Virus record (IMG/VR): IMGVR_UViG_3300025892_000008
DNA from: a virus
Lineage: Duplodnaviria; Caudoviricetes
Strand: one strand, 5' to 3'
DNA length: 64,000 nucleotides
Position numbers and translations under genes: made by a program
Shown here: piece after piece, positions 31,726 to 63,804 of the stretch
Numbering within the stretch: the stretch's first letter is position 1
Layout: each line of letters begins with the position of its first letter
Notes under the pieces: generated by a model
Told to the model about the DNA's origin: nothing
The model's database searches: none
The model's input: only the letters and a program-made list of their open reading frames with translations

Positions 31726-32787
31726 ATGACTCAGCAAATTTCCAAAGTAACCACAGTACATCTTGAACTCACGGACAAGTGCCAGGCTCAATGCCCTATG
31801 TGTGCTAGGAATTATCATGGTGGTCCAACAAGACCCTTTATCAAGAATGGCGATATGAGCATTGATGATTTTAAAAAATGGTTTCCGAAATCATTCCTTG
31901 GACAATTACAAAATTTTTATAGTTGTGGCAACTACGGTGATCCGGCATTTGCACGTGATTGTTTGGAAATCTATTCCTATGTAAGAGAATGCAATCCTAA
32001 TACTAGATTGGCACTACACACAAATGGCGGAATGCGCAACCCGGAATGGTGGGCTAAATTAGCCAAGGTGATAGGAACAGTATCATATAGCACGGTTGTG
32101 TTTGCTGTAGACGGATTCAAAGGCAAACATGAACTTTATAGAAGAAACACGAACTTTGATAAAGTTATAGAAAATATGAAAGCGTATATAGATGCTGGAG
32201 GCGAAGCAAGAGTTGATAGTTTAGTATTCAAACATAATGAGGATGAAACCGAAGAACTAAAAAGTTATCTTCTTGCCCTCGGAGTGAAGGAAGTTAATTT
32301 TATAAGCACTACTAGATTTTACGAAATGAAAAAATTTGAAGTGCTTGATCAAAATTTAAATACTGAATATTACCTGGAACCAGCACAAAAGAAAGAATTT
32401 ATAAAACACCCAAACGCAGAGCTTGTTAAATTACTTGATGAGAATTACAGAAAGGATGTGTTTAGATCAGCAAAAATATCACCTAGGTGTGTAAACGAAG
32501 ACGCAATATATGTTGACCCGTACGGAAACATAAATCCGTGCTGTTATATTGGTAGCGACTATCTGGAAGAACCTATTGAGGAAACACTGCCGATTCACAC
32601 TCTTAGAAATCAGAGCGTGTTGAATACAAGGGCAGTATTAGATGATATCGGACATTACACATGTCAGTCAGGCATACTAGGATCAGATGGATATCTTTTT
32701 ACAGGGTTGGACAAGTATTGGCATGGTGAAGACAAATGCATGACCTGTGTTAAGGCATGTTCAAATGCAATAGTGGAGCGCAAATGA
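31726..32787 (+). CDS. Radical SAM protein 1 with C-terminal SPASM/Twitch-like cysteines
   Basis: CQAQCPMC; CGNYGDP; C-terminal C...YVDPYG..NPCC...C..AC. Confidence 0.9.
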   Translation: MTQQISKVTTVHLELTDKCQAQCPMCARNYHGGPTRPFIKNGDMSIDDFKKWFPKSFLGQLQNFYSCGNYGDPAFARDCLEIYSYVRECNPNTRLALHTNGGMRNPEWWAKLAKVIGTVSYSTVVFAVDGFKGKHELYRRNTNFDKVIENMKAYIDAGGEARVDSLVFKHNEDETEELKSYLLALGVKEVNFISTTRFYEMKKFEVLDQNLNTEYYLEPAQKKEFIKHPNAELVKLLDENYRKDVFRSAKISPRCVNEDAIYVDPYGNINPCCYIGSDYLEEPIEETLPIHTLRNQSVLNTRAVLDDIGHYTCQSGILGSDGYLFTGLDKYWHGEDKCMTCVKACSNAIVERK

Positions 32788-33770
32788 GTTTTACTCTAAT
32801 ACCCTTTGACAATATAGTTAAGTTTGGTCAGTCCACTATGATTGAACGTCCTTTGTTTAATGTTAGTTGGATACTGGGTAGATTTTGTAATTACAAGTGT
32901 TCCTATTGTTGGCCATATGCCAATACCGATACACCTGATCATCAAGACTTTGAAGTATACACAAACGCAATTGATGAAATAAAACGCCAAGCGAGAGAAA
33001 ACGGATTTACTGAATTTCATTTTAGTTTTAGTGGTGGAGAACCAACAGCATATAAAAAGTTTGGTGATCTAGTTGAGTACTATGCTAACGACAATGAGGC
33101 TAAGTATCAAAGCATACACCTTACAACGAATTTAAGTCCGGGTGAAAAATGGTGGGCAAGATTTATAAACAACACCAGCCACTTGACACGTCGTAGTATC
33201 ACTGCAAGTTATCATGCAGAGTTTGCAAATGAACAAGACTTTGGAGATAGATGTTTACAACTCATAGAAGGAGGAGTATTTGTTACAATTAATCAAGTTA
33301 TGGTTCCTGAATACTTTGAAGAATATTATGAACGTTGCAGTAGATTCGCAGACAAAGGAATTAACGTCACTCTTAAACCGCAGTCCGATCCTACCGCGTC
33401 TAGAATAGTAGACGGTTATACTGATGAACAAATTGACAAGTTACAAACAGGCTTTCCACAGAATTGGAATGGCGAGCAAATTATGCAAATGTATCTAGAA
33501 GATGCTAAAGGTAATGATTACGGATTGGATCAAGCAGAAAGAATGAATGCATTTAACTTTAATAAGTTTAAAGATTGGACATGCGCAGCAGGCTATCAAA
33601 GTTGCGTTATAAGAGGGGTGGAAGTTAAAAGAGCATATAGTTGTGCGGAAGAGCCTTTAGGCACGCTTACAGAGGGTTTTACGCTGTTTAAAGCACCATC
33701 TAAATGCATTACTAGCACTTGTGTAAGCAGTGCAGACAGTAAAATACCAAAATGGAAAGAACATGAATAA
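32784..33770 (+). CDS. Radical SAM protein 2
   Basis: CNYKCSYC, SFSGGEPT, C-terminal CAAGY...C...C...C; ATGA overlap with the previous gene. Confidence 0.9.
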   Translation: MSFTLIPFDNIVKFGQSTMIERPLFNVSWILGRFCNYKCSYCWPYANTDTPDHQDFEVYTNAIDEIKRQARENGFTEFHFSFSGGEPTAYKKFGDLVEYYANDNEAKYQSIHLTTNLSPGEKWWARFINNTSHLTRRSITASYHAEFANEQDFGDRCLQLIEGGVFVTINQVMVPEYFEEYYERCSRFADKGINVTLKPQSDPTASRIVDGYTDEQIDKLQTGFPQNWNGEQIMQMYLEDAKGNDYGLDQAERMNAFNFNKFKDWTCAAGYQSCVIRGVEVKRAYSCAEEPLGTLTEGFTLFKAPSKCITSTCVSSADSKIPKWKEHE

Positions 33771-34500
33771 GTTTGGAATATTAGGATATGGATATGTTGG
33801 CAAGGCAACGCACAAAGGTCTGCTAAAGGATGCCAAGGCAATTGTGTATGATACAATGTTTGATGTTGACAAGAGCATTATATACGCTGCCGACACGGTG
33901 TTTATCTGTATTCCTACTAATACGGAGCAGGACATTGACATCATAATTGATGAAATAACTTACCTACAACTAAAAAACCCCAAGGTATCTATTATCATTA
34001 GAAGCACACTACCACTAGGGTCTTGCGAAAGGATACAGAAAGCAGTTGGACCTATAATATACATTCCAGAATTCCTAAGAGAAAGATACTGGGACACAGA
34101 CTGCTTAAAGCGACCTCTGGTTGTGGGACACGATAAGTTAAAACTCCCCACTTGGTTATTGGATGAAGAAATACACGAGTGTACTACAAAGGAAGCAGAA
34201 CTTGTGAAAATGTTTTCTAACAATTTTGCAGTAATGAGAATAGCCTTTGCAAACGTGTTCTATGATCTCTCAGAAAGTGTGGGTGCAGATTACGATAACG
34301 TATTAAGTATGTGGAAACAGGTTCAGCAGAATCAGTCATACATGGAAGTTCCGGGACATGACGGAACGAGAGGCTTTGGCGGCAAGTGCTTGCCTAAGGA
34401 CCTAGACTTTCTAATCGAAACACTAGAAAAGCATAACATTAAACAGGAATGGTTTAAACACATAAGGGAACTGAATAAGTCATGGACAAAAAAGTCTTAG
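33763..34500 (+). CDS. UDP-glucose/GDP-mannose 6-dehydrogenase family, short form without the C-terminal domain
   Basis: GILGYGYVG, FICIPT, IRST, PEFLRE, AELVK.FSN.F, GFGGKCLPKD. Confidence 0.85.
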   Translation: MNKFGILGYGYVGKATHKGLLKDAKAIVYDTMFDVDKSIIYAADTVFICIPTNTEQDIDIIIDEITYLQLKNPKVSIIIRSTLPLGSCERIQKAVGPIIYIPEFLRERYWDTDCLKRPLVVGHDKLKLPTWLLDEEIHECTTKEAELVKMFSNNFAVMRIAFANVFYDLSESVGADYDNVLSMWKQVQQNQSYMEVPGHDGTRGFGGKCLPKDLDFLIETLEKHNIKQEWFKHIRELNKSWTKKS

Positions 34501-35357
34501 TAACAGGTGCCGCAGGATTGATAGGCAGGGAGTTGTGCAAACAACTCAAGGACAAGTTCTATGTGATTGGTGTTGACAACAATTTTAGATACGAAAATTA
34601 TAAGCCCGACTGCAACGAATTTATCAGCGAAAGCATATCGTCTTATCTAAGCAACACTAATAACGATTTTGATTATGTGTTTCACATGGGGAACATTAAT
34701 GGTACTAAGTATTTTTACGAAATACCCAACAGACTTGCAGAAAACAACGTAATTTGTGATTTTGCTGTTTTCGATTTTGTAAAAGAAAATCCTGATTGTA
34801 AATTAATATATGCGAGCAGCAGCGAAGTGGTAGCAGGCTCGGAAGAATTTCCAACACCTGAACTAACAGACATTACCATAAAGGATATACACAATCCAAG
34901 ATGGAGTTACCGATTGCCAAAGATACTAGGCGAAAACTTTTTGATGAATAGTGATCTAAATTTTCTTATAATAAGATTCTTTAACGCATTTGGTGCTGAT
35001 ACAGGCAGTGGACATTTTGTAAGAGATATACTGGACAAGATTGAGAGTGGAGATCATACCTTGATAGGAGCAGATGAAACACGTTCATTCTGTCGTGTGG
35101 AAGATTCTGTTGATGCAATAGTAAACATTTTTAAACTGGCAGGGCAACAGGTAGTTAACATTGGAAGCGATGAAGAAATAACGGTATTAGAAGCAGCAAA
35201 TATAATTGCAGCACATAAGAACAAAAGTATCGAATGGAACTGTGTTGCTGGTAAGCAAGGTAGCGTTAAGAGACGAAAGCCTGATCTTACTCTTTTAAGA
35301 AAATACTATCCTAAATTTAATCCTACAAAGTTTGCTGACGCAATACAAGATTTATAG
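34482..35357 (+). CDS. NAD-dependent nucleotide-sugar epimerase/dehydratase
   Basis: VLVTGAAGLIG, YASSSEV, RWSYRLPK (YxxxK), IIRFFN, TRSFC.V.D. Confidence 0.88.
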   Translation: MDKKVLVTGAAGLIGRELCKQLKDKFYVIGVDNNFRYENYKPDCNEFISESISSYLSNTNNDFDYVFHMGNINGTKYFYEIPNRLAENNVICDFAVFDFVKENPDCKLIYASSSEVVAGSEEFPTPELTDITIKDIHNPRWSYRLPKILGENFLMNSDLNFLIIRFFNAFGADTGSGHFVRDILDKIESGDHTLIGADETRSFCRVEDSVDAIVNIFKLAGQQVVNIGSDEEITVLEAANIIAAHKNKSIEWNCVAGKQGSVKRRKPDLTLLRKYYPKFNPTKFADAIQDL

Positions 35358-36212
35358 TTGTAGTATTTTAATTTTTTTAATTTTTGATTTTTCAGGAAGT
35401 GTAATTTTATTTTCCCATTTACACAAACGACATTGCTCTTGAGGTTCTAATCTTGTCTTTATCCAAGTTTCAAATTCTTCTGCACTACACCCAAGATCTT
35501 GTTTTGCAATGTCAGCAAACGGATCTTCTATTTGAAATTTTCTTGATAACTGAGGAAGTATTGCCTGTTGATGACAGCGATAAAATCTACCATCTACTAG
35601 ATACATACATTGTATAGCAGGACACTTAGAATGTTGATCATCTTTATCTCTAAGTTTATCCCAACTTAATTTATTACCTTTCTTCACAACAGCAGGGTTT
35701 TCGTAAAACTGCCATGCTTCTGTAATTTCACCTCTTTCAATTCCGTCAACAACAAGTTTATAATGCCACTCACCATCTTCGTGTCTAGTATCTTGGAATC
35801 GCTCGCAGGACACATCTGTCCACCTTTTGTTGACCCATGACATAACTGTGTCGAGGTCTTCTTTAGAATGAGCTGATATTTCTATTTTCCAATCACGCTC
35901 TATCCATTCAGGATACAATTCGTCAAATTTGTCTAAATCTCTTCCATTAGTGACTACCCACTTTTTAGCATTAGGCCACATGCTTTCCAAGTATGCCATC
36001 CATTCTCCTAGTGCAGGATTAGATGTAGGTTCTCCGCCTATAATAAAAACTTCTTCGAAGTCAACTTTATTCTGTAGGCCTTTTAATTTTTCCTTAGATG
36101 TATCTGGCTTAAAATGATTGCCCCAATTAAGATGATTAAACGTACAACAACTGTCACACGCCAAGGTACAGGTGTGAGTAATATAAACACTTAATTCAGG
36201 AAGAAGCAACAT
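35352..36212 (-). CDS. Radical SAM protein 3
   Basis: CTLACDSC, IIGGEP, VTNG, C-terminal C...C....YRC...CRLC; start set by TAAATA-N5-ATG. Confidence 0.88.
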   Translation of the reverse strand: MLLLPELSVYITHTCTLACDSCCTFNHLNWGNHFKPDTSKEKLKGLQNKVDFEEVFIIGGEPTSNPALGEWMAYLESMWPNAKKWVVTNGRDLDKFDELYPEWIERDWKIEISAHSKEDLDTVMSWVNKRWTDVSCERFQDTRHEDGEWHYKLVVDGIERGEITEAWQFYENPAVVKKGNKLSWDKLRDKDDQHSKCPAIQCMYLVDGRFYRCHQQAILPQLSRKFQIEDPFADIAKQDLGCSAEEFETWIKTRLEPQEQCRLCKWENKITLPEKSKIKKIKILQL

Positions 36213-36242
36213 ACTTCTATTTATAGCATATATATACATATG
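36210..36242. promoter_or_regulatory. Divergent phage promoters (TAAATA-N5-ATG on -, TATATA-N5-ATG on +)
   Basis: TATTTA at 36218-36223; TATATA at 36229-36234. Confidence 0.55.
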
Positions 36243-36842
36243 AAAGTAGAACTTGAAGATGTAGCATTTTGGATGGATGCAATTCGCAATAGCGATGATA
36301 GATACCGCACGCTGGAAAGTTTTTGGAAAGGCCAAATCAACAGTAAAGTTTGGTTAGTAGAAGCATTAGAAGAACTAAACATTAATAGTCCTCAAACAAT
36401 TGCTATACATGGAGGCTGGAATGGTTTATTGGCAAGTTTACTTTTCAACAGCAACTTAAATATACAACATATTACAAGTGTAGACATTGATCCTAAATGT
36501 AAAGAAACAGCAATAACAGTAAACAAGCGTCAGGAAATGCAAGGACGTTTCACAGCAGAAACAGCAGACATGTGTACTTACACAGAATTTGCAGATATTG
36601 TAATCAATACAAGTTGTGAACATATTACGCAGGAGCAGTACAACGAATGGCTTGAACGACAACAAAACTCGCTTATTGTATTACAAAGCAATAACTATTT
36701 TGAATTACAAGAGCATGTTAGATGTGCTAACGATTTAAATGAATTTATAAGTCAAAGTAATATAAAACCGTTTTTTAAAGGAACACTTGAAACACCTAAA
36801 TATACAAGATATATGATAATAGGGAAAAAACAAATTGGCTGA
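36240..36842 (+). CDS. Class I SAM-dependent methyltransferase-like protein
   Basis: IAIHGGWNG motif I, ITSVDIDP motif II, TADMC, IVINTSCEH. Confidence 0.75.
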   Translation: MKVELEDVAFWMDAIRNSDDRYRTLESFWKGQINSKVWLVEALEELNINSPQTIAIHGGWNGLLASLLFNSNLNIQHITSVDIDPKCKETAITVNKRQEMQGRFTAETADMCTYTEFADIVINTSCEHITQEQYNEWLERQQNSLIVLQSNNYFELQEHVRCANDLNEFISQSNIKPFFKGTLETPKYTRYMIIGKKQIG

Positions 36843-38217
36843 ACTAGACAAATATAAAAAAGCAATAGCAGATGCTGCTGGTACAGAAACATTTTGTGTC
36901 TTACCATGGATACATTTCGCTACAAGGCCCAACGGTGATATGCGTCTGTGCTGTTCAGCAAACGCCAGCGGCGCAGGTGAGGACCATGAAGTAGGTTTGG
37001 TAAAAATGGAAAACGGCAAGCCTGCAAACTTTGGTAGGGAAACACCGATGGAAGCATGGAATAACGATTACATGAAAAGTGTAAGGACGACTATGCTTGA
37101 TGGCAAAATACCTGCAAGTTGTAGAAAATGCTTTGAGGAAGAGTCTAAAGGAGTTGCAAGTAAACGTGTTTGGGAAAGTTATACTTGGATGGAAGATGGT
37201 GTTGATATACCTGAACTTATAAGACAAACAAAAGAAGATGGCACAGTTCCTGAAAATTTAAAATATCTAGACTTACGTTTAGGACATACATGTAATATTA
37301 AATGTGTCATGTGTTCACCACACGATAGTAGCAAGTGGGTTGCCGATCATAAAAAATTAATTCCAGTTTTACAAGATCCTGAAGTTAAAAGACAAATGCA
37401 ATGGGATAGAAAAGAGTTCAATAACAAATGGCATGAGAAAGATACATTCTGGGAAGAAATGAATGCACAGATCCCTAACTTAAAACAGGTATACTTTGCA
37501 GGTGGCGAGCCGTTAATGATTAGAGAACACAAAAAATTTATTGAAGAAATTATTAGACAAGGATATCAAGACAAAATACTGTTACGTTATAACAGTAACG
37601 GATTGCTAGTTGATGAAGATTTAATAGAATTATGGAGCAAGTTTAAGAAGGTCAAGTTTGCAGTGAGCATGGATGCTAGTCATGGACGTGATGAATATAT
37701 ACGTTATCCTACAAACTTTGAAACTGTAGAAAAAACTTTGCATATGCTTGATAACACACCTGACAACATACAAACAAGTTTAGCAACAGCAATACAGATA
37801 TTCAACATAAAACACTTGCCTGATTTTATGAAGTGGAAACTTGAAAGCGGATTTAAAAAACTAAATGCAGGAACAGTTCCAGGCGGCATACAAATGGGCG
37901 GTGGCCTAGTTAATATGCACCTGTTGTATATTCCAACATTCCTTAGTATACAAATACTACCTGAAGAAGATAAGCAAGAAGTTAAAGAACGCTTCATGGA
38001 CTTTAAAGATTGGCTATGGAATAACTATAGACAAGATGACGAATATTGGAAACATAATCCATATGGGTGGAAACGTTGGGAAGCAGTTCTTAATCACATG
38101 AATGCACAAGACAACAGTCACCTATTACCAGGCTTTAAAGAATATACAAACAAACTTGATGCTATACGTGGACTGTCAGCAGCCAAAGTATTTCCAGAGT
38201 TAGCACACTTACTGTGA
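36835..38217 (+). CDS. Radical SAM protein 4 with N-terminal Twitch/SPASM-like domain
   Basis: FCVLPW...NGDMRLCC...CRKC; CNIKCVMC; YFAGGEP. Confidence 0.92.
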   Translation: MAELDKYKKAIADAAGTETFCVLPWIHFATRPNGDMRLCCSANASGAGEDHEVGLVKMENGKPANFGRETPMEAWNNDYMKSVRTTMLDGKIPASCRKCFEEESKGVASKRVWESYTWMEDGVDIPELIRQTKEDGTVPENLKYLDLRLGHTCNIKCVMCSPHDSSKWVADHKKLIPVLQDPEVKRQMQWDRKEFNNKWHEKDTFWEEMNAQIPNLKQVYFAGGEPLMIREHKKFIEEIIRQGYQDKILLRYNSNGLLVDEDLIELWSKFKKVKFAVSMDASHGRDEYIRYPTNFETVEKTLHMLDNTPDNIQTSLATAIQIFNIKHLPDFMKWKLESGFKKLNAGTVPGGIQMGGGLVNMHLLYIPTFLSIQILPEEDKQEVKERFMDFKDWLWNNYRQDDEYWKHNPYGWKRWEAVLNHMNAQDNSHLLPGFKEYTNKLDAIRGLSAAKVFPELAHLL

Positions 38218-39179
38218 TTAAACAAGTAATAAATTCGCAAAATCCTAAAACACTTCGTATTGAATATATGATTGGCAATACTTGTAATCACAAGTGTTGG
38301 TATTGTTTTAAAGGCTCAAATGAAGGTGAGTTTAGATGGACTGACAATTTTGATGCTACTACTAAAAACTTTTTCCATCTATTAGATCATTATAAAAAAT
38401 ACGGCAAAGAAAGATTTGAAATACACATTGTAGGCGGTGAACCTACACTATGGCCTGAATTAGGTAAGTTTACAAAACTTCTTAAAGAAAATTATAATTC
38501 TTGGATTAGTATTAGTACTAATGGTTCTCGTACATCAAGGTGGTGGGAACAGTACGGAAAATATTTTGATGATGTAATGATTAGTGTACATCATGAATAT
38601 GCTGATATAGAACATTTAAAGAAAATATCTGATATAGTTTATAAGCAAGGACCTGTTGTAAATGCAATGGTATTAATGGATCCGTTTGCTTGGGATAAGT
38701 GTATAGATATAGTAAAGCAATTACGTACAAGTGAATATAGATGGTTTATAAATGCAATGGAAATTATGCACACAACTATTGATTATACAACTGAACAATT
38801 AAAATATATAAGCAAACCAATAAAGAGATATCCTAATCCTTTATGGATATTAAAAAAATTAAAAAACTTAAAACGTAATCCTAAAGTTGTGTTGGATAAC
38901 GGCAAAACAAAAACTGTAAATAGAAATTGGATCGGATTAAACAAGCAAACTAATTTCAAAGGTTGGTTATGTAACATTGGTGTAGATAATCTTTATATTG
39001 ATAAAGACGGTAGAGTTACAGGTGCGTGTAGAACAGTACTATTTGAAAATTATAACATTAATGATGTAGATTTTATAGAAAAATTTAATCCAGTAATCAA
39101 ACCTAAGATATGTGATATGGATTTTTGCGGATGTCAACCTGAACAGTTGTTAGATAAGGTTAAAGTAGTTCCTTTGTAA
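38214..39179 (+). CDS. Radical SAM protein 5
   Basis: CNHKCWYC, IVGGEPT, STNG, C-terminal CNIG...GAC...C...CGC. Confidence 0.9.
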   Translation: MIKQVINSQNPKTLRIEYMIGNTCNHKCWYCFKGSNEGEFRWTDNFDATTKNFFHLLDHYKKYGKERFEIHIVGGEPTLWPELGKFTKLLKENYNSWISISTNGSRTSRWWEQYGKYFDDVMISVHHEYADIEHLKKISDIVYKQGPVVNAMVLMDPFAWDKCIDIVKQLRTSEYRWFINAMEIMHTTIDYTTEQLKYISKPIKRYPNPLWILKKLKNLKRNPKVVLDNGKTKTVNRNWIGLNKQTNFKGWLCNIGVDNLYIDKDGRVTGACRTVLFENYNINDVDFIEKFNPVIKPKICDMDFCGCQPEQLLDKVKVVPL

Positions 39180-41996: not shown

Positions 41997-42053
41997 GTAG
42001 ATATTTACCAGTAAATATGTGCAGTTAATTATTTCATGGTAAATATTAGTATG
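41994..42053. promoter_or_regulatory. Divergent TAAATA-N5-ATG promoters
   Basis: TATTTA at 42002-42007 for ATG 41996 (-); TAAATA at 42040-42045 for ATG 42051 (+). Confidence 0.7.
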
Positions 42054-55610: not shown

Positions 55611-55652
55611 AAGTATATTTATGTGCGTATATTATAGATAAGTAGTAGTATG
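55608..55652. promoter_or_regulatory. Divergent promoters (TAAATA-N5-ATG on -, TAAGTA-N5-ATG on +)
   Basis: TATTTA at 55616-55621; TAAGTA at 55639-55644. Confidence 0.65.
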
Positions 55653-56504: not shown

Positions 56505-57411
56505 GAAACATTTACCTTTTGGAAATGCATTTGCTATAGCAGATCCATTGGTTACACAATTCTTATCTAATCTTGATATTGACGTAACAAAAGTTACACA
56601 AGACCAAGATGTACTGAAAAAGTTTTTAGATAGATATATTGCGTGGATATCAGAAACAAAAAATAATAATGTTACAGGTTTAGAAAAATATCCATATGCT
56701 TGTTTTGCAAATGGTACGACAGAAGCATTTGAAAAGTTTTATGCAAAACATCATAAACGTAGATTTAGATTTTACAAAGGCGAATATGTATATCATAGAC
56801 TCAATTGTAGAAACAACGGATATGATTGGGAGTGGTTGGATGATGCTCCGCTTGCTGGAAATGATGTTCTAATGATTAGTTTACCTTTTAGTGATACAGG
56901 CAACACACCTAGCAATTTAGATTCTATACTTGACCAGTGTGACAAGTTGAAAATACCTGTGTTACTTGATTGCGCTTATCTTGGTGTATGCAGCGGCATA
57001 GACTTTAATCTTGATAGAAAATGTATTACTGATGTAACATTTAGTCTATCTAAAACACTATACTGCGCTCATGCTAGAATAGGAATGAGATTAACTAAAG
57101 AAGATGATGACGATCCATTGTTTGTTACAAACAAAGCAGGATACATCAATAGAGTGTCTGCATATATAGGATTAAAATTACTAGACAACTTTTCACCAGA
57201 TTACATTTACAACAAGTACAGAGAAAGACAAGAACGTTGTTGTGAAATACTAGATGTAGAACCAAGTAACTGTATTTTATTTGGAATCGGTGACCACCGA
57301 TGGGATGAATATAACAGAGATAGAGAAACAAATAGACTAAGCCTACACAGATATATTTCTAATGATAACCTTGAAGATGAGATAAAAGCAATAGCAGATG
57401 AAAAAAGGTAG
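56485..57411 (+). CDS. PLP-dependent enzyme (fold type I, aminotransferase-like)
   Basis: NGTTEAF, VLLDCAY (pyridine-N Asp), FSLSKT (Schiff-base Lys), RIGMR. Confidence 0.7.
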   Translation: MKNKYDKKHLPFGNAFAIADPLVTQFLSNLDIDVTKVTQDQDVLKKFLDRYIAWISETKNNNVTGLEKYPYACFANGTTEAFEKFYAKHHKRRFRFYKGEYVYHRLNCRNNGYDWEWLDDAPLAGNDVLMISLPFSDTGNTPSNLDSILDQCDKLKIPVLLDCAYLGVCSGIDFNLDRKCITDVTFSLSKTLYCAHARIGMRLTKEDDDDPLFVTNKAGYINRVSAYIGLKLLDNFSPDYIYNKYRERQERCCEILDVEPSNCILFGIGDHRWDEYNRDRETNRLSLHRYISNDNLEDEIKAIADEKR

Positions 57412-58537
57412 AATACTTAATTTCGAAATCCTTTGGGATACTGATGAAGGCCTAGTCTCATTAGCAGAGAAGTATATACCTACGGATATACAAAAGGCTG
57501 CCGATGAAGGGTGTACTCATGTTGTAGGAATAGTTTTAAACGAGGGGATACTACCATTCGATGACAGAAACTTACAGCAATTTTTCTATAATTTACATAA
57601 ACAAACAAATGAGCTCGGTATTGAATTAGTAATACTATCTTCACTAGGAGAACAATTTAAAAATATTACTGTTCCGTTTGAGGTACACTATTTTCCCTAC
57701 CATGCAAGATTTGTTTACAACTGCTATAAGAAGTCAGAACTTCCGTTGTATGATAATAATGACAAGTTTTTGTTTCTCGGTGGTGCAGCAACTAGGTCAA
57801 ACAGAATAGGACTGCTTAGTAAGTTTTATGACGCAGGACTATTAGATAGAGCAGAATGGAGTTTCTTTAAACCAACATATGCTGAGGATGTCAAATGGTG
57901 TAGAGATCATTTAAAAAGATATAGCGATACAGAATACAGCAAGTTTATTGATACAGTTGAAAGAAGCATAGATGATAGGTACGATGAAGTTAAATTATTA
58001 ATTAAAGATGCTCAAGAAACTTACGGAGATTGGCACGATATTGTCAACACAAAGTTTTACAAAAGACCTGGATATCTAACACCTAAGGTATTTGAAGATA
58101 CACACTTTAGTATACTATCAGAAGGTCCTAACTTTTGGTCAGACGACTATGACTTTGTTACAGAGAAAACATGGCGTACAATTATAAACAGGCATCCTTT
58201 TATATTTGCTGGTCCTGTAGAACAGTTTAATTATATAAAGTCCTTAGGCTTCAAAACATTTGAAAACTATCTTCCAATTAAGGATTACGCTTATATTAAA
58301 AATGAAGATGAAAGGCTAGATGCTATTATAGAGAATACAAAATACCTTTTAGATAATCACAGCCAAGGGATTGCTACTGATGTTGAACATAACTATAAGC
58401 AATATATGGAAATAATAAAAGAACAGGATATTCTATTTACTAGTTTAGAAAAAGACATGGCAGTTCCTAGAAGTGAAATAGATTACTATTTAGACAACGA
58501 AGGATTAGATCACCTTATAAGGAAAAAAAATGAATAA
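57398..58537 (+). CDS. Glycosyltransferase-like protein (GT10-type TEK motif), paralog A
   Basis: KFLFLGG...NRIGLL; FSILSEG...FVTEKTWRTIIN.HPFI..G......IKSLGFKTF. Confidence 0.5.
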   Translation: MKKGRILNFEILWDTDEGLVSLAEKYIPTDIQKAADEGCTHVVGIVLNEGILPFDDRNLQQFFYNLHKQTNELGIELVILSSLGEQFKNITVPFEVHYFPYHARFVYNCYKKSELPLYDNNDKFLFLGGAATRSNRIGLLSKFYDAGLLDRAEWSFFKPTYAEDVKWCRDHLKRYSDTEYSKFIDTVERSIDDRYDEVKLLIKDAQETYGDWHDIVNTKFYKRPGYLTPKVFEDTHFSILSEGPNFWSDDYDFVTEKTWRTIINRHPFIFAGPVEQFNYIKSLGFKTFENYLPIKDYAYIKNEDERLDAIIENTKYLLDNHSQGIATDVEHNYKQYMEIIKEQDILFTSLEKDMAVPRSEIDYYLDNEGLDHLIRKKNE

Positions 58538-59699
58538 GGGTAGAGTAATTAACTTTGAATGGATGCGTGATTATAATAAATGGTCAGCAGAAGATTTTAA
58601 CGTGCTTAGAACAAAGTTAATTAGTAAAGAAATTGATCAAGCAGCAGAAGATGGTTGCAATATTATAGTAGGAGTATATCTTCTTGATGGCTTTCTGCAA
58701 CCTAAAGCAAATTTAAAAGACTTTCTTCTCCACATTCATGCTATCAAAGATCATGCAAAAAGCAAAGGTATAGAGCAGATGTATATTGTAAGTGGACAAG
58801 GAGAAACCATAGAAGGATTGCCAGTTCCATTTTTCTTTTTTGATTATAATGTAAGAATGATATACAACAGTTACAAAGACGTGCAGCATCCGTACTATAA
58901 TCCAAACAACAATAAGTTTTTATTTTTAACAGGGATGCCTAATAGAGAAAATAGAATAGGACTTATGAGTAAGTTTTATGATGCAGGTATGTTGGATAAA
59001 GCAGAGTGGACATTCTTTCCTCCTTGGACTGAACTAGATAAAGAATGGTGTAGAAACTGTTTAGCTCATTACACAGACGAACAATATAATAAATTTTTAC
59101 TAGACTGCAAACGTTCTTTTGATGGAAGGTTTGAAACAGCCAAGGACTTTTATGGTTCTTATAATCAAGATACTGATATAGTTTGGCACGATATAGTTGA
59201 TACTGATTGGGTCAAAGCACCTGCACACATTGATACTAGTGTGTTTAATAATACACTGTTTAGTATAGTAAGTGAAGGTCCAAACTACTGGGACGATGAC
59301 AATGCGTTTGCAACAGAAAAGTCTTGGCGTTGCTTTTACCTTAGACATCCATTTATATTTGCAGGACATCCTGATCAGTTCCTATACTTGAAAGACTTAG
59401 GCTACAGAACGTTTGAAGAATACTTGCCTATACCAGACTATTATAAACTACCGAATGAAAATGATAGAAACAACGCAATTGTAGAAAATGCCAAGTATCT
59501 ATTAGAGCATAGAGAACATGACGATGACATACGTTTAGACACTGAAGAAAATTACTTGCAGTTTCTTAAGCATGTTATAACGCAGGATAACTTACTTGCC
59601 AAGTTTAAAGACGAGTTTAATATTCCTAAAGAAGAATTAGATTACTACTTCGAAGGCTTAGGATACACACAACTTATTAGGAGATTACCTAATGACTAA
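58530..59699 (+). CDS. Glycosyltransferase-like protein (GT10-type TEK motif), paralog B
   Basis: KFLFLTG...NRIGLM; FSIVSEG...FATEKSWR.F...HPFI.AG......LKDLGYRTF. Confidence 0.5.
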   Translation: MNKGRVINFEWMRDYNKWSAEDFNVLRTKLISKEIDQAAEDGCNIIVGVYLLDGFLQPKANLKDFLLHIHAIKDHAKSKGIEQMYIVSGQGETIEGLPVPFFFFDYNVRMIYNSYKDVQHPYYNPNNNKFLFLTGMPNRENRIGLMSKFYDAGMLDKAEWTFFPPWTELDKEWCRNCLAHYTDEQYNKFLLDCKRSFDGRFETAKDFYGSYNQDTDIVWHDIVDTDWVKAPAHIDTSVFNNTLFSIVSEGPNYWDDDNAFATEKSWRCFYLRHPFIFAGHPDQFLYLKDLGYRTFEEYLPIPDYYKLPNENDRNNAIVENAKYLLEHREHDDDIRLDTEENYLQFLKHVITQDNLLAKFKDEFNIPKEELDYYFEGLGYTQLIRRLPND

Positions 59700-60597
59700 G
59701 TGTGCAGCATTTTGGAAACATACTAATATACGTGGTGATAACAGAGTATTTCCGTGTTGTAGATACAAAGCACCTGTAACAACATTTAAAGGTAGCCTTG
59801 AAGATGTACTACAATCAGAAGAGTATGTAAAGTTAAGGAACACTGATGTGTCAACTTTATGGGAATGTTCGAAGTGTATGTATGAAGAAAAGAACGGCAA
59901 AGAAAGTTTACGCCAACGCATGAACAAAGAATATGATACTGATACTGTTGGCTTAGAATACTTAGAAATAGGCTTTGATAATATATGTAATCTAACATGT
60001 GATGGCTGTTGGAGCGAGTTTAGTTCAGCATGGGCTAAGAAAGAAACAGGAGTTGCAAAGTATACAAGTGTTGATGAAATAGAAACAGTTCCAGACACTG
60101 TAAAGAAAGTATTGTTTCTCGGTGGTGAGCCTTTAATGACAAAAAGGCATCAACAGTTCCTTGAAAAAATTAATAATCCTAAACAAGTTGAAGTAATATA
60201 TAACACCAACGGAACTTTCCTTTTAAAAGACGATGTTATAGAACTGTTAGAAAAATTTAAAAAGGTACACTTTATATTAAGTATTGATGCTGTTGGTCCG
60301 TTAAATGAAATAGTTCGTAGCGGAAGTAAGTGGCCTGACATACTAAAATTTATAGAACAAATTAAAAAATTAGGTTATGGACTTGAAGTAAACAGTGTGT
60401 TACATTTAAATAATTGGCATGGTATTGTCGATTTAGAAAAGTTTGTTAACGGCATTACTCCTATATGGACCGTAAATGTTTTAACATACCCAAAGCATCT
60501 TGATATTATCAACTATCATGACAAGCAAGAAATAATAGATTTAGTCGAACAAACGAGGATACCAAACAAGAGTTATGTTATCAACCATTTATCATAA
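59692..60597 (+). CDS. Radical SAM protein 10 with N-terminal Twitch/SPASM-like domain
   Basis: KCAAFW...VFPCC...CSKC; CNLTCDGC; FLGGEP; NTNG. Confidence 0.9.
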   Translation: MTKCAAFWKHTNIRGDNRVFPCCRYKAPVTTFKGSLEDVLQSEEYVKLRNTDVSTLWECSKCMYEEKNGKESLRQRMNKEYDTDTVGLEYLEIGFDNICNLTCDGCWSEFSSAWAKKETGVAKYTSVDEIETVPDTVKKVLFLGGEPLMTKRHQQFLEKINNPKQVEVIYNTNGTFLLKDDVIELLEKFKKVHFILSIDAVGPLNEIVRSGSKWPDILKFIEQIKKLGYGLEVNSVLHLNNWHGIVDLEKFVNGITPIWTVNVLTYPKHLDIINYHDKQEIIDLVEQTRIPNKSYVINHLS

Positions 60598-61144
60598 TAT
60601 ACAAAAACAAGCAACAACAGAAGCACAATCTGTTGAAAGGCTAATACCGCATTTTGTTCGTGTAACTGACGTTGACAGTTCTCCAGACCTAACTGACATA
60701 CACCCACGTGACAGAGAAGATATGGATTTGCGTTTTATTACAATTGACGATAGTCTTTTTCCTAATACGCTTAAACTTATTGAACAGGTTCCAGGAATCA
60801 ACAATGCATTAATTATTGGCATAGCACCGCAGTCTCAATTGTACACACATGTAGACACTATTGATTTAGAACCATATGAGGAAATAGACTGGCTAAGTGT
60901 TTACATGGGCATGTTTGTTCCAAGTTTAGATCAGTCTAAGTTAGGAGTAAAAGTTGGTGATAAAATTTTTAATCATAAAAACACAATTATATTTGATACA
61001 CAAATACCTCATAGTGCATGGAATTGGACAGATAATTGGTGGGTATCTGTTAGACTATCAGTTGATAAAACAATGATATCAACTACCGATAAATATACGC
61101 ATATAATAACAAAGGAAAGCAAGCATGAAAGTATCGACCCATAA
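60575..61144 (+). CDS. Fe(II)/2OG oxygenase 10 (Asp/Asn beta-hydroxylase-like)
   Basis: IAPQSQLYTHVD...IFDTQIPHSAWN. Confidence 0.75.
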   Translation: MLSTIYHNIQKQATTEAQSVERLIPHFVRVTDVDSSPDLTDIHPRDREDMDLRFITIDDSLFPNTLKLIEQVPGINNALIIGIAPQSQLYTHVDTIDLEPYEEIDWLSVYMGMFVPSLDQSKLGVKVGDKIFNHKNTIIFDTQIPHSAWNWTDNWWVSVRLSVDKTMISTTDKYTHIITKESKHESIDP

Positions 61145-62177
61145 TCATTGGGATCCGTTAGAAGAAATAGTAGTTGGAATTGCAGACTACGCAAGAGTTC
61201 CTACTGTAGATCGTAGCACAATGAGCATGAGCTACACCAATCACCCAATGGATTTAATCAAGCCTTTAGAAGGCGAGTACCCAAAATGGCTTATTGATGA
61301 AGCCAACGAAGATTTACAAGGGTTGAGCGATGTACTAACCAAAGCAGGTGTAATAGTACATAGACCAAAACCAATTGATCATAGTGTAGAGTTTAGTACT
61401 CCTGAATGGAAAACAACAGGTTGGTACACGTGGTGCCCGAGAGACTTATTGCTACCAATGGACAATCTTGTTATTGAAACTCCGAGTGCTTGCCGAGCAA
61501 GACAATATGAAACTAGAGCATATAGAGAGGTAATGTTTGCAGCATTGGAAGATGGTGTTGAATGGATAGCAGCACCTAAACCTATACTACCTGATGAAGG
61601 ATACCAATTCGATGATATTGAAGGTAAGCCAAGTCTACTAAATTTAGAACCTGTGTTTGATGCACCTAACTGTGTACGCATGGGAAAAGATATATTGTTT
61701 CAAATTAGTAATACTGGAAACCATTGGGGACTTACATGGCTTAAGAATGTTTTGGAGAGAAGGGGATACAGAATACATCCTGCAGAACACATTTACAGTT
61801 ATGGACACTTTGATAGCACAATAGTCCCATTACGTCCTGGATTAGTATTACTAAACAGTTCAAGGGTAACCGCAGAAAACTGTCCTAAAATATTTGAGAA
61901 ATGGGATAAAATTTGGTTTGATGATTGTGTTGCACAAGGAAGTAAAATTCCAGGTGGTGTTGCTCCTTGTAGTCCTTACATTGGAATGAATATTTTAAGT
62001 ATTGATCACAATACTGTTTGTGTAGATGACACACAAGAACCTTTGATGAGAGAATTAGATAAGCACGGTATTACAAGTGTACCTATACGTTTTAGGCACG
62101 CTATGACTCTTAGTGGTGGATTACATTGCGCTACACTTGACCTACGTAGAAAAGGAGAGTTAGAAGATTACACATGA
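61125..62177 (+). CDS. Amidinotransferase (glycine/inosamine-phosphate amidinotransferase, pentein family)
   Basis: HNHWDPLEEIVVG, CPRD, FDA (Asp), HFDST (His), LSGGLHCATLD (Cys) catalytic triad. Confidence 0.9.
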   Translation: MKVSTHNHWDPLEEIVVGIADYARVPTVDRSTMSMSYTNHPMDLIKPLEGEYPKWLIDEANEDLQGLSDVLTKAGVIVHRPKPIDHSVEFSTPEWKTTGWYTWCPRDLLLPMDNLVIETPSACRARQYETRAYREVMFAALEDGVEWIAAPKPILPDEGYQFDDIEGKPSLLNLEPVFDAPNCVRMGKDILFQISNTGNHWGLTWLKNVLERRGYRIHPAEHIYSYGHFDSTIVPLRPGLVLLNSSRVTAENCPKIFEKWDKIWFDDCVAQGSKIPGGVAPCSPYIGMNILSIDHNTVCVDDTQEPLMRELDKHGITSVPIRFRHAMTLSGGLHCATLDLRRKGELEDYT

Positions 62178-62680
62178 TAAAGTTTGAAAAAAATATAGAA
62201 GATTTTTGGTCGCAGGATCTTAAAAACTTTAAGTTTACAGTTTTGTCTCCATTAACACAAGCACAGAGAGATGAATGGTCTCACCCTAATTACACTAATG
62301 AGATAAACTTACTTGAACAAGCATTTGATGATGATCTTCCTGATCACTGGCCTAGGTTCATGTCTGATTTAGAAATAGAACACGGCACAGTTTCGTGGAC
62401 AAATATTGGTGCTGGTAATGTTATACCAACACACACAGATCATTTCTATAAACTAAGGACCAAGTATGGAGTTGAGAAAGATGAGTGTCTGCGATATCTT
62501 ATATTTCTACAGGACTGGGAATTAGGACATATGGTAGAGTTTGAAAATAAAATTCTTAATAGATGGAAAAAAGGAGATGTGTGGAGTTTTGGAATAGATG
62601 ATCCACATTGTGCAGCAAACGCAACACAAACAGATTTTATAACCTGTCAGGTTAACACTTTTAAACGGAAAGAAAAATGA
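62174..62680 (+). CDS. Fe(II)/2OG oxygenase 11
   Basis: GNVIPTHTD...IFLQDW..GH...PHCAAN.....TCQV. Confidence 0.78.
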   Translation: MIKFEKNIEDFWSQDLKNFKFTVLSPLTQAQRDEWSHPNYTNEINLLEQAFDDDLPDHWPRFMSDLEIEHGTVSWTNIGAGNVIPTHTDHFYKLRTKYGVEKDECLRYLIFLQDWELGHMVEFENKILNRWKKGDVWSFGIDDPHCAANATQTDFITCQVNTFKRKEK

Positions 62681-63804
62681 AATTAACACCTACACAAGAG
62701 CATTGGAATAATGCTACACTAAACTATGATCTAGAAAAATTCAACTGGCCTGAATGGGCGTTAAGTGTTGTACAAGAAGTAGCACCACAGGTTAACAAAC
62801 TAGAAACACTACACGAAGTACTATCTCCTAAAGAAATTGTAACTGTTAGTAGGCATGTACAAAATGCATGTAGTCGTAAAGATTTTATGGAACGCTTTGA
62901 TGCTTTTGTTGCTGAATATATTCCGCAGCGTATCGATAATAAAAGATACATGATTCAACGTCAAGGAACGTTACGTGTTGTTATTCCTAATCAAGCAGGT
63001 GTAGGACGAAGACTTGCTTTCCATCAAGGTATTTTTGTAGGGAATGGTAGAGGTTGTAGAACTATATGGACACCGTTTACAGAAGCACATGGTACTAACA
63101 CTATGTGGATGGTAGATGTAGAAAACAGTAGAAGAATTACAAAACAAATTATGTCTGAAAAATGGAGTTTGGAACAGATAGAAGATGAATGTTTAAAACA
63201 TGCTTTTCCTATTACACTAAAGCCAGGGCAAAGCCATTTGTTCTTTCAAGAGATGTTACATGGTAATGTAAACAACGAAGAAGGTTATACACGGGTAAGC
63301 ATGGACATGCGTATCCTTATTGAAGGCGAAGAATACGGTAGAAGACATCCAGGTGGATTTATGCGTTTGCCAGGTGATCACGAAGTTGCTGGAGAATCAG
63401 ACTATACAGGAAAGAGTGCTATAACATATGCAGGCTGGAATAGTAAGTTTTCAAATCAAATTCCGTTACCTATGCAAAGAGCAATCATTGAGCCATACTG
63501 CGTCAAAAACAAAATTGAATATACAAGTTACGAATTTGAAAACGAACACCTAGACTGGATGCCTGGTTTAGAATTTTATATTAATGAACAACCAGATGTT
63601 ATTGTACTATGCAGTATCTATTCAATGACTGATGATGTTGAAAGACGCAAAGAACTTTTTAATCTAGCATTAGAGAAAGGTGTTGAACTACACTTTGCAA
63701 ATGAACTGTGTTCTATAAAGACAGTTAATGATCTTGACAAAATTGAAACTTATCTCAACTTTGCTGTTGCTAAAAAAGATCCTTATGTTTGGGAATTAGT
63801 GTAA
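62677..63804 (+). CDS. Two-domain StrG/PhyH-like Fe(II)/2OG enzyme 12 with HxG motif
   Basis: LAFHQG...TIWTPF...LHGNV.N....TRVSMD.R; separate C-terminal domain of about 130 aa. Confidence 0.7.
   Translation: MKLTPTQEHWNNATLNYDLEKFNWPEWALSVVQEVAPQVNKLETLHEVLSPKEIVTVSRHVQNACSRKDFMERFDAFVAEYIPQRIDNKRYMIQRQGTLRVVIPNQAGVGRRLAFHQGIFVGNGRGCRTIWTPFTEAHGTNTMWMVDVENSRRITKQIMSEKWSLEQIEDECLKHAFPITLKPGQSHLFFQEMLHGNVNNEEGYTRVSMDMRILIEGEEYGRRHPGGFMRLPGDHEVAGESDYTGKSAITYAGWNSKFSNQIPLPMQRAIIEPYCVKNKIEYTSYEFENEHLDWMPGLEFYINEQPDVIVLCSIYSMTDDVERRKELFNLALEKGVELHFANELCSIKTVNDLDKIETYLNFAVAKKDPYVWELV

Follow-up and report, generated by a model that had tools for sequence, protein, structure and literature searches.

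The host recognition cluster (HRC) of pelagimyophages and cyanomyophages is a hypervariable region in which radical S-adenosylmethionine (SAM) cassettes occur together with glycosyltransferases, and no function was given for these cassettes (Zaragoza-Solas et al., 2020, PMC7029224). For gene clusters of the cyanophages P-SSM2 and S-SSM6a, a role in O-antigen diversification or in the synthesis of a secondary metabolite has been proposed (Iyer et al., 2021, PMC7824862), and a cyanophage carrying kdsA and kdsB along with aminotransferase, amidinotransferase and radical SAM genes has been read as encoding "antibiotic synthesis genes" (PMC12801897). Glycans on the capsid and tail of mycobacteriophages have also been described (Freeman et al., 2023, as cited in PMC12619734). 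Here, an island of tailoring enzymes is examined that occupies positions 31726-63804 of a viral DNA stretch of 64,000 nucleotides (Duplodnaviria; Caudoviricetes; IMG/VR record IMGVR_UViG_3300025892_000008), the whole of which is referred to as the window. The island consists of 40 open reading frames (ORFs; g01 to g40) of 132-460 aa and is 99.8% coding.

This glycan-type tailoring island is real, intact, clade-wide and variable in its cassettes. The explanation preferred for it, to which an about even chance is given, is a cytoplasmic pathway, expressed late, in which nucleotide sugars are tailored and the resulting glycan is transferred, probably to virion proteins. The original prediction, made from the sequence alone, had suggested a modification system acting on virion glycans or proteins, on the host surface or on DNA as a hypermodified base, which would serve to evade defence or alter receptors. 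The idea of one coherent tailoring island is retained and can be narrowed to a carbohydrate-centred one, considering the three glycosyltransferase folds, the sugar-nucleotide enzymes, the g40 fusion, the flanking genes for 3-deoxy-D-manno-octulosonate (Kdo) and the sugar contexts in which relatives of the N-terminal-twitch radical SAM enzymes (N_Twi) are found. The hypermodified base is the least supported part, because g11 fails the QueC cut-off, the promoter-like boxes are of late type and the setting is one of fibre genes rather than replication genes.

Enzyme content of the island

Exactly ten proteins (g01, g02, g05, g07, g08, g09, g10, g30, g32 and g36), the number originally predicted, pass the Pfam cut-off for radical SAM enzymes (PF04055, 29.5 bits), with scores of 30.7-54.1 bits. 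The CxxxCxxC motif is present in all of them and GGEP in nine, being missing from g01. Three (g07, g10 and g36) also pass the whole-protein cut-off of 170 bits for NF033640 (N_Twi_rSAM), whereas the other seven score 20-44 bits, are non-members and fall in no named family. In the three members a SPASM-type cysteine domain precedes the PF04055 core according to Pfam, and 20 homologues share the cysteines C21, C40, C96 and C99 in front of C153/C157/C160. Viperin was considered as an identity for g02 and g08 and rejected, the matches being confined to the shared N-terminal core (39-53 bits, cut-off 180).

The N_Twi family is large, with 8589 clusters at 50% identity (E<1e-30). No protein above the cut-off was found in 14 model genomes, and a bacterial-genome scan with one N_Twi protein from a metagenome-assembled genome (MAG) gave a single weak Firmicutes match. 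A full-text literature search found neither a characterised family member or reaction nor a description of an island dominated by radical SAM genes. Distant members encoded on MAG contigs occur in carbohydrate-related surroundings. On one such contig (L089) a triple N_Twi fusion (10001-13612) lies among GT1, GT2, DegT aminotransferase and PMT_2 genes, while on another (L094; 61% GC, carrying Crp-family regulators) some 11 radical SAM genes form an array with a sugar-1-phosphate nucleotidyltransferase at its head and GDSL-like and Asn-synthase genes after it. The latter array, in which the N_Twi fusion is located at 10001-13321, holds homologues of g07 (E 1e-50) and g02 (E 2e-13). A third distant member is encoded 3 kb from a polysaccharide cluster. 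Many metagenomic members are tandem fusions of two or three complete twitch and radical SAM units (800-1400 aa), some of them with TPR repeats.

Twelve Fe(II)/2-oxoglutarate (2OG)-type proteins had likewise been predicted, and all 12 could be reproduced with support of unequal strength, the HxD motif being present in each candidate. The cut-off of PF05118 (22.6 bits) is passed by the cupins g13 (31.2 bits), g29 (27.1), g31 (36.0) and g37 (30.5), with g12 just under it at 20.5 bits. A second group is formed by g17, g18, g26 and g39, where H112, D114 and H169 are invariant in 28 homologues; profiles from the Protein Data Bank (PDB) gave weak matches to AtsK and a beta-hydroxylase, and no link to the PF05118 cupins was detected by local hhalign. 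The assignment of g25 comes from motif only, H178-R-D180 and a further His being invariant, and its PDB profile search returned nothing usable. In g40, scores of 77 bits (E 1e-21) for TIGR04324, the "sporadic carbohydrate cluster 2OG-Fe(II) oxygenase", and 46 bits for TIGR04323 lie below the respective cut-offs of 150 and 55, and its atlas matches are PhyH and LIC12192 clusters at 0.97-0.98. The prolyl-hydroxylase-type oxygenase g19 carries a cold-shock domain, from which an RNA or DNA substrate seems possible for this protein alone. The g19 homologue in one relative (L018) is shorter, with 198 aa, and its alignment covers about half of g19 at 46% identity.

The predicted UDP-sugar dehydrogenase (g03) and two epimerases (g04 and g15) are borne out by Pfam matches and, for g03 and g04, by motifs. 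In g03 the C-terminal UDP-binding domain is absent, yet the catalytic Cys is kept, and this short form is conserved in relatives (244-264 aa). Where two glycosyltransferase-like proteins had been expected, three were found, g34 and g35 with a GT-B fold and g28 with an N-domain of GT-A fold. The top 50 VIA matches of the g34 model are nearly all GT-B glycosyltransferases (Z 9-12.1, residues 1-357), Foldseek also retrieves GT-B enzymes (probability 0.9-1.0), and the atlas offers GT10 as a lead to the CAZy family of g34 and g35. For g28, residues 1-217 match the GT-A fold (Z 9-11), which is common to sugar nucleotidyltransferases, and the DxD motif is unassigned. Its best structural match is the capsid glycosyltransferase of virus PBCV-1 (2p6w; Z 11.0, rmsd 3.6, 168 aa), with many other GT-A chains at Z 9-10.5; Foldseek returns GT-A and NDP-sugar transferases, the neighbours including the glycosyltransferase domain of LH3 and mimivirus R699. 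PDB sequence-profile searches with g06, g28 and g34/g35 yielded nothing usable.

Among the other predicted classes, the pyridoxal phosphate (PLP) enzyme corresponds to g33, with a PF00155 match and an SLSK lysine motif, and several more hold in part. The methyltransferase g06 is recognised by its motifs but not by its family score (Pfam Methyltransf_25, E 0.038). The QueC-like g11 has the expected architecture, with an SGGxDS PP-loop and C...CxxCxxC, but its QueC score is below the cut-off. QueC membership was accordingly rejected, PF06508 giving 17 bits against 22 over profile positions 150-207 only; at E<=0.01, QueC is absent from five related phage fragments, in contrast to the 14 control genomes, of which 12 exceed the cut-off. 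The best PDB profile match of g11 is ThiI, a weak one (E 0.011). Both kinase-fold proteins (g16 and g24) are seen through weak profile matches to protein kinases (E 0.002), the two short-chain dehydrogenases/reductases (SDRs) through weakly supported likeness in g20 and g22, the amidinotransferase (g38) through a weak arginine deiminase (ADI) match and a C-terminal GGLHC motif, and the SGNH protein (g27) through an N-terminal GDS motif only. In a comparison with PHROG, g38 matched phrog_25854 (E 8e-32), a family of unknown function. No gene could be confirmed as the GNAT-like protein.

Selection, promoter boxes and conservation of the island

Ratios of non-synonymous to synonymous substitution rates (dN/dS) were calculated against orthologues on related contigs at 70-97% identity, where dS is unsaturated. 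The pairwise values are 0.03-0.2 in 24 genes, with the lowest in g07 (0.03-0.04), and all island genes for which the ratio could be estimated (these 24) are under purifying selection. Loss of catalytic residues, raised in the original prediction as an objection, is not seen, as the catalytic motifs are intact and dN/dS is low.

The hexamer TAAATA is found within 45 nt upstream of 8 of the 12 operon-first starts, mostly 11-14 nt before the ATG, compared with a background of 1.7% of random positions (p 4e-12) and with 2 of 29 internal gene starts. Boxes are located at 36218, 43319, 43672, 53287/53297, 55616, 61089 and other positions, and the octamer TATAAATA is depleted in the window (2 found, 9.9 expected). 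The palindromic box pair at 53287-53303 would serve the divergent g28 and g29. In the window, TAAATA boxes are also located ahead of the 2251-aa fibre gene and of a fibre-like gene, with the GATAAATA box standing 32 nt before the 2251-aa gene. T4-type late transcription relies on a late-promoter box and a gp55-type sigma factor, the latter being encoded outside the window here, and by analogy late transcription of the island along with the fibre genes is probable. Leaderless or very short-leader late mRNAs are suggested, because at such a distance from the ATG there is no room for a Shine-Dalgarno sequence. Two metatranscriptomic libraries contain all of window positions 31000-50999 at flat depth and in contigs of 67-71 kb, so that they apparently hold DNA carry-over and are unusable as transcription evidence; an oligo-dT library contains only small low-depth patches at 90-95% identity.

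Over 83 related loci (1.08 Mb) the order g02, g06, g07, a g08-type radical SAM gene, g09, g10, g11 and g12 is shared. In a relative with a 76%-identical g07, at least g06 to g10 are preserved as a run, and the place of g11 is taken by an unannotated ORF of 225 aa. Content outside this core varies as cassettes, among them additional radical SAM genes, enzymes for sugars, the g28 transferase in a new place within the core, and two FA_desaturase genes. The last two are adjacent genes of a membrane di-iron hydroxylase/desaturase family inside the island of the relative with the 76%-identical g07 (L084/L085/L086, 6270-7816), and they hint that some cassettes may act on lipids. Identities to one relative are mosaic (g10 99%, g09 96% and g07 94%; g08 38% and g12 42%), a sign of recombination among lineages that circulate together. 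Radical SAM enzymes with intact motifs make up 379 of the 1225 ORFs (31%) in the 83 loci and form at least 25 clusters at 40% identity; one related fragment of 159 kb has 15 radical SAM matches and four N_Twi members above the cut-off. Since the eight-gene core (g02 and g06-g12) is kept and the rest is exchanged, the decoration should differ between strains in an O-antigen-like manner.

The window is densely coding, with 34-40% GC, and its genes include, by PHROG and Pfam, a T4-type clamp loader, an endolysin, baseplate and tail-fibre proteins and ThyX. Neither half of the window has a nucleotide-level match by megablast against 50,697 phage records. Cultured relatives were detected at the protein level only, the clamp loader sharing 54% identity with its counterparts in the Pseudomonas PA5oct group and 43-47% with the ones in Atu_ph07 and RsoM2USA; in RsoM2USA, a Ralstonia phage, the radical SAM neighbourhood is annotated entirely as hypothetical proteins. 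A genome of about 360 kb is estimated from related IMG/VR fragments, whose 159 kb correspond to a rated completeness of 44%. The source is an uncultured marine jumbo myophage, belonging to a clade of abundant and cosmopolitan ocean jumbo phages. Orthologues of g07 at 85-94% identity occur on 261 IMG/VR contigs, metagenomic proteins matching g07 at E<=1e-5 number more than 4000 (the best 120 listed being 75-92% identical), and near-identical DNA has been recovered in marine metagenomes from at least nine studies. In several public marine samples the phage reaches a k-mer depth of about 20x. No tRNA or Rfam family was found across the window.

The coordinates of the island genes and of flanking features are collected in Table 1. 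Neighbouring island ORFs mostly overlap by 4-40 nt, with 29 on the plus strand, 11 on the minus strand and 12 strand switches. The tight packing of the original prediction is upheld, but not its count of 36 genes, as 40 ORFs are present. Pfam, PHROGs and NCBIfam give no structural, replication or membrane match inside the island, in line with the predicted absence of structural, replication and transport genes. The longest-ORF calls of g05, g14, g29 and probably g11 begin too far upstream, and ATG starts close to the boxes restore the lengths seen in relatives and remove apparent N-terminal membrane segments. Following this correction no membrane protein is found in the island, the only hydrophobic N-termini, those of g14 and g29, having vanished.

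Table 1. Location and supporting evidence of the island genes (g01 to g40) and of flanking features in the window.
Feature	Position	Strand	Evidence
g01, radical SAM, 353 aa	31726..32787	+	PF04055 47 bits; CQAQCPMC; TAAATA box 14 nt upstream
g02, radical SAM, core	32757..33770	+	PF04055 51 bits; in most related loci, 61-91% identity; dN/dS 0.09-0.15
g03, short nucleotide-sugar dehydrogenase, 256 aa	33730..34500	+	PF00984 68 bits; TIGR03026 98 bits, below cut-off; GGKC catalytic Cys motif
g04, NAD-dependent sugar epimerase/dehydratase	34482..35357	+	PF01370 92 bits; GAAGLIG and YxxxK
g05, radical SAM	35352..36212 (listed ORF to 36335)	-	PF04055 31 bits; likely start ATG 36212 behind TATAAATA box; relatives 287 aa
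g06, SAM-methyltransferase-like, core	36240..36842	+	GGWxG, DID, NTSxEH invariant in 25 homologues; Rossmann GxGxG/acidic motifs
g07, N-terminal-twitch radical SAM, most conserved core gene	36835..38217	+	NF033640 394 bits; dN/dS 0.03-0.04
g08, radical SAM, core position, two divergent allelic forms	38214..39179	+	PF04055 54 bits; relatives 93-95% or 36-44% identical
g09, radical SAM, core	39160..40074	-	PF04055 53 bits; synteny
g10, N-terminal-twitch radical SAM, core	40058..41326	-	NF033640 328 bits; 73-99% identity in relatives
g11, PP-loop ATPase with C-terminal Zn-type Cys cluster, core	41310..42131	-	Invariant SGGADS, C233...C254/C257/C260; start probably downstream of 42131
g12, Asp/Arg-hydroxylase-type cupin, core	42036..42704	+	PF05118 20.5 bits; TAAATA box 24 nt upstream
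g13, Asp/Arg-hydroxylase-type cupin	42666..43319	-	PF05118 31 bits; ATAAATA box at start
g14, small protein	43322..43666 (longest ORF to 43720)	-	No family match; ATG 43666 behind ATAAATA box
g15, NDP-sugar 4,6-dehydratase/epimerase type	43690..44607	+	PF16363 140 bits, PF01370 136 bits; best models LegB and dTDP-glucose dehydratase, below cut-offs
g16, protein-kinase-like fold, paralogue of g24	44604..45281	+	Profile matches to Ser/Thr kinases and Bud32, E 0.002-0.16; hhalign g16/g24 100%
g17 (45274-45846) and g18 (45843-46370), paralogous HxD...H oxygenase-like	45274..46370	+	Invariant H112, D114, H169
g19, cold-shock domain fused to 2OG-Fe(II) oxygenase (2OG-FeII_Oxy_3)	46355..47401	+	PF00313 37 bits; PF13640 42 bits; CspD models match
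g20 SDR-like, g21, g22 SDR-like	47398..49022	+	g22 adh_short E 0.002; g20/g22 hhalign 100%; g21 no match
g23, and g24 kinase-like fold	48996..50241	-	g23 no match; TAAATA box 11 nt before g24
g25 HRD...H protein, g26 HxD...H family, g27 SGNH-like	50268..52211	+	GDS motif in g27; TAAATA box 11 nt before g25
g28, GT-A-fold N-domain and Rossmann-like C-domain	52186..53280	-	AlphaFold2 (AF2) model, pLDDT 77
g29, Asp/Arg-hydroxylase-type cupin	53309..53956 (listed ORF from 53171)	+	PF05118 27 bits; ATG 53309 behind box; divergent boxes 53287-53303
g30 radical SAM, g31 Asp/Arg-hydroxylase-type cupin	53951..55610	-	PF04055 38 bits; PF05118 36 bits; ATAAATA box 11 nt before g31
g32 radical SAM, then g33 PLP aminotransferase, fold type I	55650..57411	+	PF04055 43 bits; PF00155 26 bits; SLSK motif
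g34 and g35, paralogous GT-B-fold proteins, 44% identical	57398..59699	+	AF2 model of g34, pLDDT 70
g36 short N-terminal-twitch radical SAM, g37 Asp/Arg-hydroxylase-type cupin	59692..61144	+	NF033640 189 bits; PF05118 30.5 bits
g38, amidinotransferase/ADI-fold candidate	61125..62177	+	PF02274 E 0.047 at C-terminus; GGLHCATLD; GATAAATA box 35 nt upstream
g39 HxD...H family, g40 2OG oxygenase fused to LIC12192-type domain	62174..63804	+	Profile/motif evidence
Right boundary, convergent tail-fibre-type gene, 3' end	63799..64000	-	81% over 67 aa to C-terminus of 504-aa L081:15916-17430
Left flank, fibre/spike genes (844, 191, 84, 764, 2251 aa)	8851..21311	-	PHROG tail-fibre and tail-spike matches
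Left flank, sugar genes: HAD-IIB/PMM-like, GT8-like, KdsB-like cytidylyltransferase, KdsA, PTPS/QueD	24016..27405	-	Pfam; phrog_1962 glycosyltransferase

On the right, the fibre gene of the original prediction is confirmed, since 63799-63999 (minus strand) encodes the last 67 residues of a fibre-type protein, 81% identical to a homologue on a related contig (L081). This homologue is complete, with 504 aa, is rich in G, T, A and N, and also matches repeats in the 764-aa tail-spike gene of the window. Directly left of the island are ThyX, a 64-aa Hc1-type histone-like ORF and two fibre-like genes. The 64-aa ORF (31431-31625, minus strand), which had not been listed, lies between the neighbour of ThyX and g01, and an ORF at the same position in a relative (L088) matches Pfam Hc1, a histone H1-like nucleoprotein; the order ThyX, Hc1 and radical SAM array is common to both. 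Further left, a test for the CMP-Kdo pathway showed that KdsA passes its cut-off (339 bits, cut-off 242) and that the KdsB-like cytidylyltransferase stays below (164 bits, cut-off 193). The HAD-IIB/PMM-like protein could act as the phosphatase, and KdsD was not found within the window. The sugar theme extends beyond the coordinates of the island, and fibre genes bracket the whole block.

Other genes of the left flank have been recorded. An endonuclease (22995-24035, minus strand; phrog_8420, E 1.6e-78) and the PTPS/QueD-type gene (26956-27405, minus strand) stand among the Kdo and glycosyltransferase genes, and QueD may serve a 7-deazaguanine pathway. An Fe/Mn superoxide dismutase (22423-22980, minus strand; Sod_Fe_C E 6.5e-20, Sod_Fe_N E 4.9e-12) is encoded about 9 kb from the island, and it may be speculated that it protects the ten O2-labile Fe-S enzymes. 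In the 2251-aa fibre (14556-21311, minus strand), the C-terminal residues 2122-2245 match phrog_22593, a family of unknown function; from a reading of the sequence alone, this stretch resembles the self-cleaving chaperone domain of endosialidase-type fibres.

Proposed pathway and alternative explanations

The substrates, step order, product and acceptor that we infer for the preferred pathway are as follows. Nucleotide sugars would be supplied by the flanking KdsA, KdsB-like and HAD genes together with g03, g04 and g15, and the last three would oxidise, dehydrate or epimerise them. The radical SAM enzymes, three with an N-terminal twitch domain and seven others, would abstract hydrogen at unactivated carbons, allowing dehydrogenation, epimerisation, deoxygenation or C-C/C-methyl chemistry, and the 12 Fe(II)/2OG oxygenases would hydroxylate. 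Acting in succession, g32 and g33 could convert an alcohol through a ketone to an amine, according to BtrN/BtrS logic, and g38 could amidinate that amine. Methylation would be performed by g06 and phosphorylation by g16 and g24, while g11 may activate a carboxylate by adenylation, possibly for amidation. The products would be transferred by g28 (GT-A) and by g34 and g35 (GT-B), most likely to a virion protein of the fibres or capsid. A virion-protein acceptor is favoured because the enzymes are soluble, export genes are absent, and the position and promoter type are common with the fibre genes. Nucleotide sugars are favoured as substrates because the MAG contexts of N_Twi genes, the transferases, the sugar-nucleotide enzymes, the g40 fusion and the Kdo genes agree. 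Precursor peptide, RRE domain, exporter and protease genes were not found in the island.

A number of points weigh against this pathway. No island protein has a known product, substrate or acceptor, and the assignments of g06, g11, g16/g24, g25, g27 and g38 are motif-only or sub-threshold. None of the island radical SAM enzymes passes the NCBIfam cut-off of a characterised sugar-modifying radical SAM enzyme, as the BlsE, MoaA and viperin models score on the common core only, and twitch/SPASM radical SAM enzymes and Asp/Asn hydroxylases are at least equally typical of peptide and protein modification. Concerning the acceptor, no collagen-like or EGF-like motif occurs in the window proteins, and just three of them reach 20% Ser/Thr in a screen: the 2251-aa fibre, a 191-aa protein of the flank and a partial ORF. 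Position alone might also explain the association with fibres, given that hyperplastic regions of T4-like phages collect unrelated genes. Late timing is deduced from a promoter-like box, and the RNA libraries are uninformative on island expression. The presence of ten O2-labile radical SAM enzymes beside 12 O2-dependent oxygenases in an aerobic host is an unexplained puzzle.

As the main alternative, the acceptor would be host lipid A-core or O-chain precursors. Modified sugars, of Kdo type and others, would be added to them cytoplasmically and exported by the host, thereby blocking superinfection or the adsorption of progeny. The genes for KdsA, the KdsB-like protein and GT8 adjoin the island, and GT8 enzymes include lipopolysaccharide (LPS)-core transferases, just as the lipid A hydroxylase LpxO is counted among the PF05118 proteins. 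Matches of g16 and g24 to Bud32-type kinases would place them in the fold group of LPS kinases, and the two FA_desaturase-family genes in the island of one relative point in the same direction, as does the published explanation for the glycosyltransferases of the pelagimyophage HRC (PMC7029224). However, the island has no lipid-carrier transferase, flippase, polymerase or membrane protein, it lies between fibre genes, and late-type boxes better suit virion assembly than early surface conversion, so that envelope remodelling is considered unlikely. Virion proteins or a ribosomal peptide could instead be cross-linked, epimerised, hydroxylated and phosphorylated by the radical SAM enzymes, cupins and kinases, with the sugar enzymes adding a final glycosylation only. 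The sub-cut-off NCBIfam matches of the radical SAM enzymes are mostly to maturases of ribosomally synthesised and post-translationally modified peptides (PapB, YhhB/XyeB and sactisynthases), PF05118 is best known from protein beta-hydroxylases, and the structural neighbours of g28 include the LH3 domain, which belongs to a collagen lysyl hydroxylase, and R699. This proposal is quite unlikely, considering that relatives share no non-overlapping ORF of 20-90 aa from inside the island (a peptide might be encoded at another place in the genome), that Pfam gives no RRE/PqqD, leader-peptidase or transporter domain in the island, that window proteins are devoid of EGF-type and collagen-type target motifs, and that the cellular radical SAM arrays are headed by a sugar nucleotidyltransferase and lie among glycosyltransferases.

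A collection without any single pathway has also been weighed, either as a hyperplastic dump of independent auxiliary enzymes or as a source of a diffusible aminoglycoside-like small molecule instead of a decoration. Mosaic identities, swapped cassettes, the 12 strand switches and the many short operons with a box of their own are compatible with it, and the combination of radical SAM enzyme, aminotransferase, glycosyltransferase and amidinotransferase resembles that of aminocyclitol antibiotic clusters. A cyanophage with an aminotransferase of the type of 3-amino-5-hydroxybenzoate (AHBA) synthase, an amidinotransferase and a radical SAM enzyme is the one for which "antibiotic synthesis genes" were reported (PMC12801897). 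Nonetheless, order and content of the eight-gene core are kept over the 83 loci, the g06-g10 run persists in the relative with the 76%-identical g07, the enzyme classes are chemically complementary, the same radical SAM types co-occur in cellular arrays, and neither an exporter nor a resistance gene is present, which makes this view very unlikely. Hypermodification of DNA or nucleotides, for which the QueC-like PP-loop enzyme, radical SAM enzymes, transferases and aminotransferase would build a decorated 7-deazaguanine or a glycosylated pyrimidine against restriction, is highly improbable. It draws on the architecture of g11, on the PTPS/QueD gene at 26956-27405, on ThyX next to the island and on the GT-B neighbours of g34, which include the alpha- and beta-glucosyltransferases of T4. 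Yet those are only two among dozens of equal-scoring GT-B chains, g11 and the five related fragments fail for QueC as described above, no island radical SAM enzyme reaches a QueE cut-off, and the late-type boxes and fibre-gene setting are found far from the polymerase block. Cassette variability would also be unusual for a pathway that must suit the phage polymerase and packaging.

Returning to the sugar-tailoring pathway, a broader picture can be drawn from it that is possible but tentative. The clade may have radiated N-terminal-twitch radical SAM enzymes and their partners, with at least 25 sub-families in the related loci, into a combinatorial, cassette-swapping radical chemistry on nucleotide sugars in aerobic cells. 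This would give a fibre coat of hypermodified amino-, guanidino-, methyl- or hydroxy-sugars, a phage "serotype" system that diversifies like O-antigens. Were this the case, radical SAM enzymes would be major tailoring catalysts of viral glycans, and a variable sugar coat on fibres or capsid would have consequences for host recognition, grazing, aggregation and the stability of virions at sea. The compact and intact set of operons, with its 40 genes, provides a defined context for finding N_Twi substrates, in which an aminotransferase, an amidinotransferase, a methyltransferase, kinases and glycosyltransferases are at hand.

Relationship to described systems

The island resembles the HRC in being a hypervariable island of a T4-like marine myophage, with tail fibres mixed with glycosyltransferases and LPS-type sugar genes, and with close relatives differing by added radical SAM cassettes. 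Variable cassettes, fibres on both sides and glycosyltransferases are all present here. The HRC is defined by its place between VrlC and gp14, and the neighbours in the window are the clamp loader, fibres, ThyX and Hc1. It differs in that the phage is a jumbo phage of about 360 kb with a clamp loader nearest to the PA5oct group, and in the dominance of ten radical SAM enzymes and 12 oxygenases around a conserved eight-gene radical SAM core. The clusters of P-SSM2 and S-SSM6a have in common with it paralogous NAD-dependent epimerase/dehydratases, several glycosyltransferases, 2OG-Fe(II) dioxygenases (2OGFeDO) and cupin hydroxylases, methylases and variation between related phages; they comprise 8-15 genes, however, and are not centred on radical SAM enzymes.

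At the level of enzyme families, g07, g10 and g36 share with NF033640 an N-terminal four-Cys domain followed by CxxxCxxC, whereas that family is a sequence definition only and the seven other island radical SAM enzymes lie outside it. In the butirosin and streptomycin pathways (BtrN/BtrS and StrB1), a twitch radical SAM enzyme oxidises a secondary alcohol, a PLP aminotransferase gives the amine and an amidinotransferase can give a guanidine. The operon with g32-g33, g36 and g38 holds the same enzyme classes, plus two glycosyltransferases. The twitch domain, though, is C-terminal in BtrN and N-terminal here, no significant membership of the BtrN or StrB1 families was found among island proteins, and 2-deoxy-scyllo-inosose synthase was not found. 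The likeness to TIGR04323/TIGR04324 of the "sporadic carbohydrate cluster" resides in g40, which joins both domains in one protein and, being below both cut-offs, is a distant relative of families that have no known reaction.

The virion glycosylation systems of chlorovirus PBCV-1 (A64R), the mimivirus fibril and mycobacteriophages rely on soluble transferases and sugar pathways encoded by the virus, whose action on structural proteins takes place in the cytoplasm. A64R is the best structural match of g28, a similarity at the fold level that is tied with many GT-A enzymes. Those systems have no radical SAM arrays, and the present one is known from its genes. Altogether, the island belongs with the phage islands for glycans and host recognition, and its chemistry, as yet uncharacterised, is probably new. 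If the proposed pathway is correct, virion glycosylation would be extended from mycobacteriophages and giant eukaryotic viruses to the phages of the ocean.

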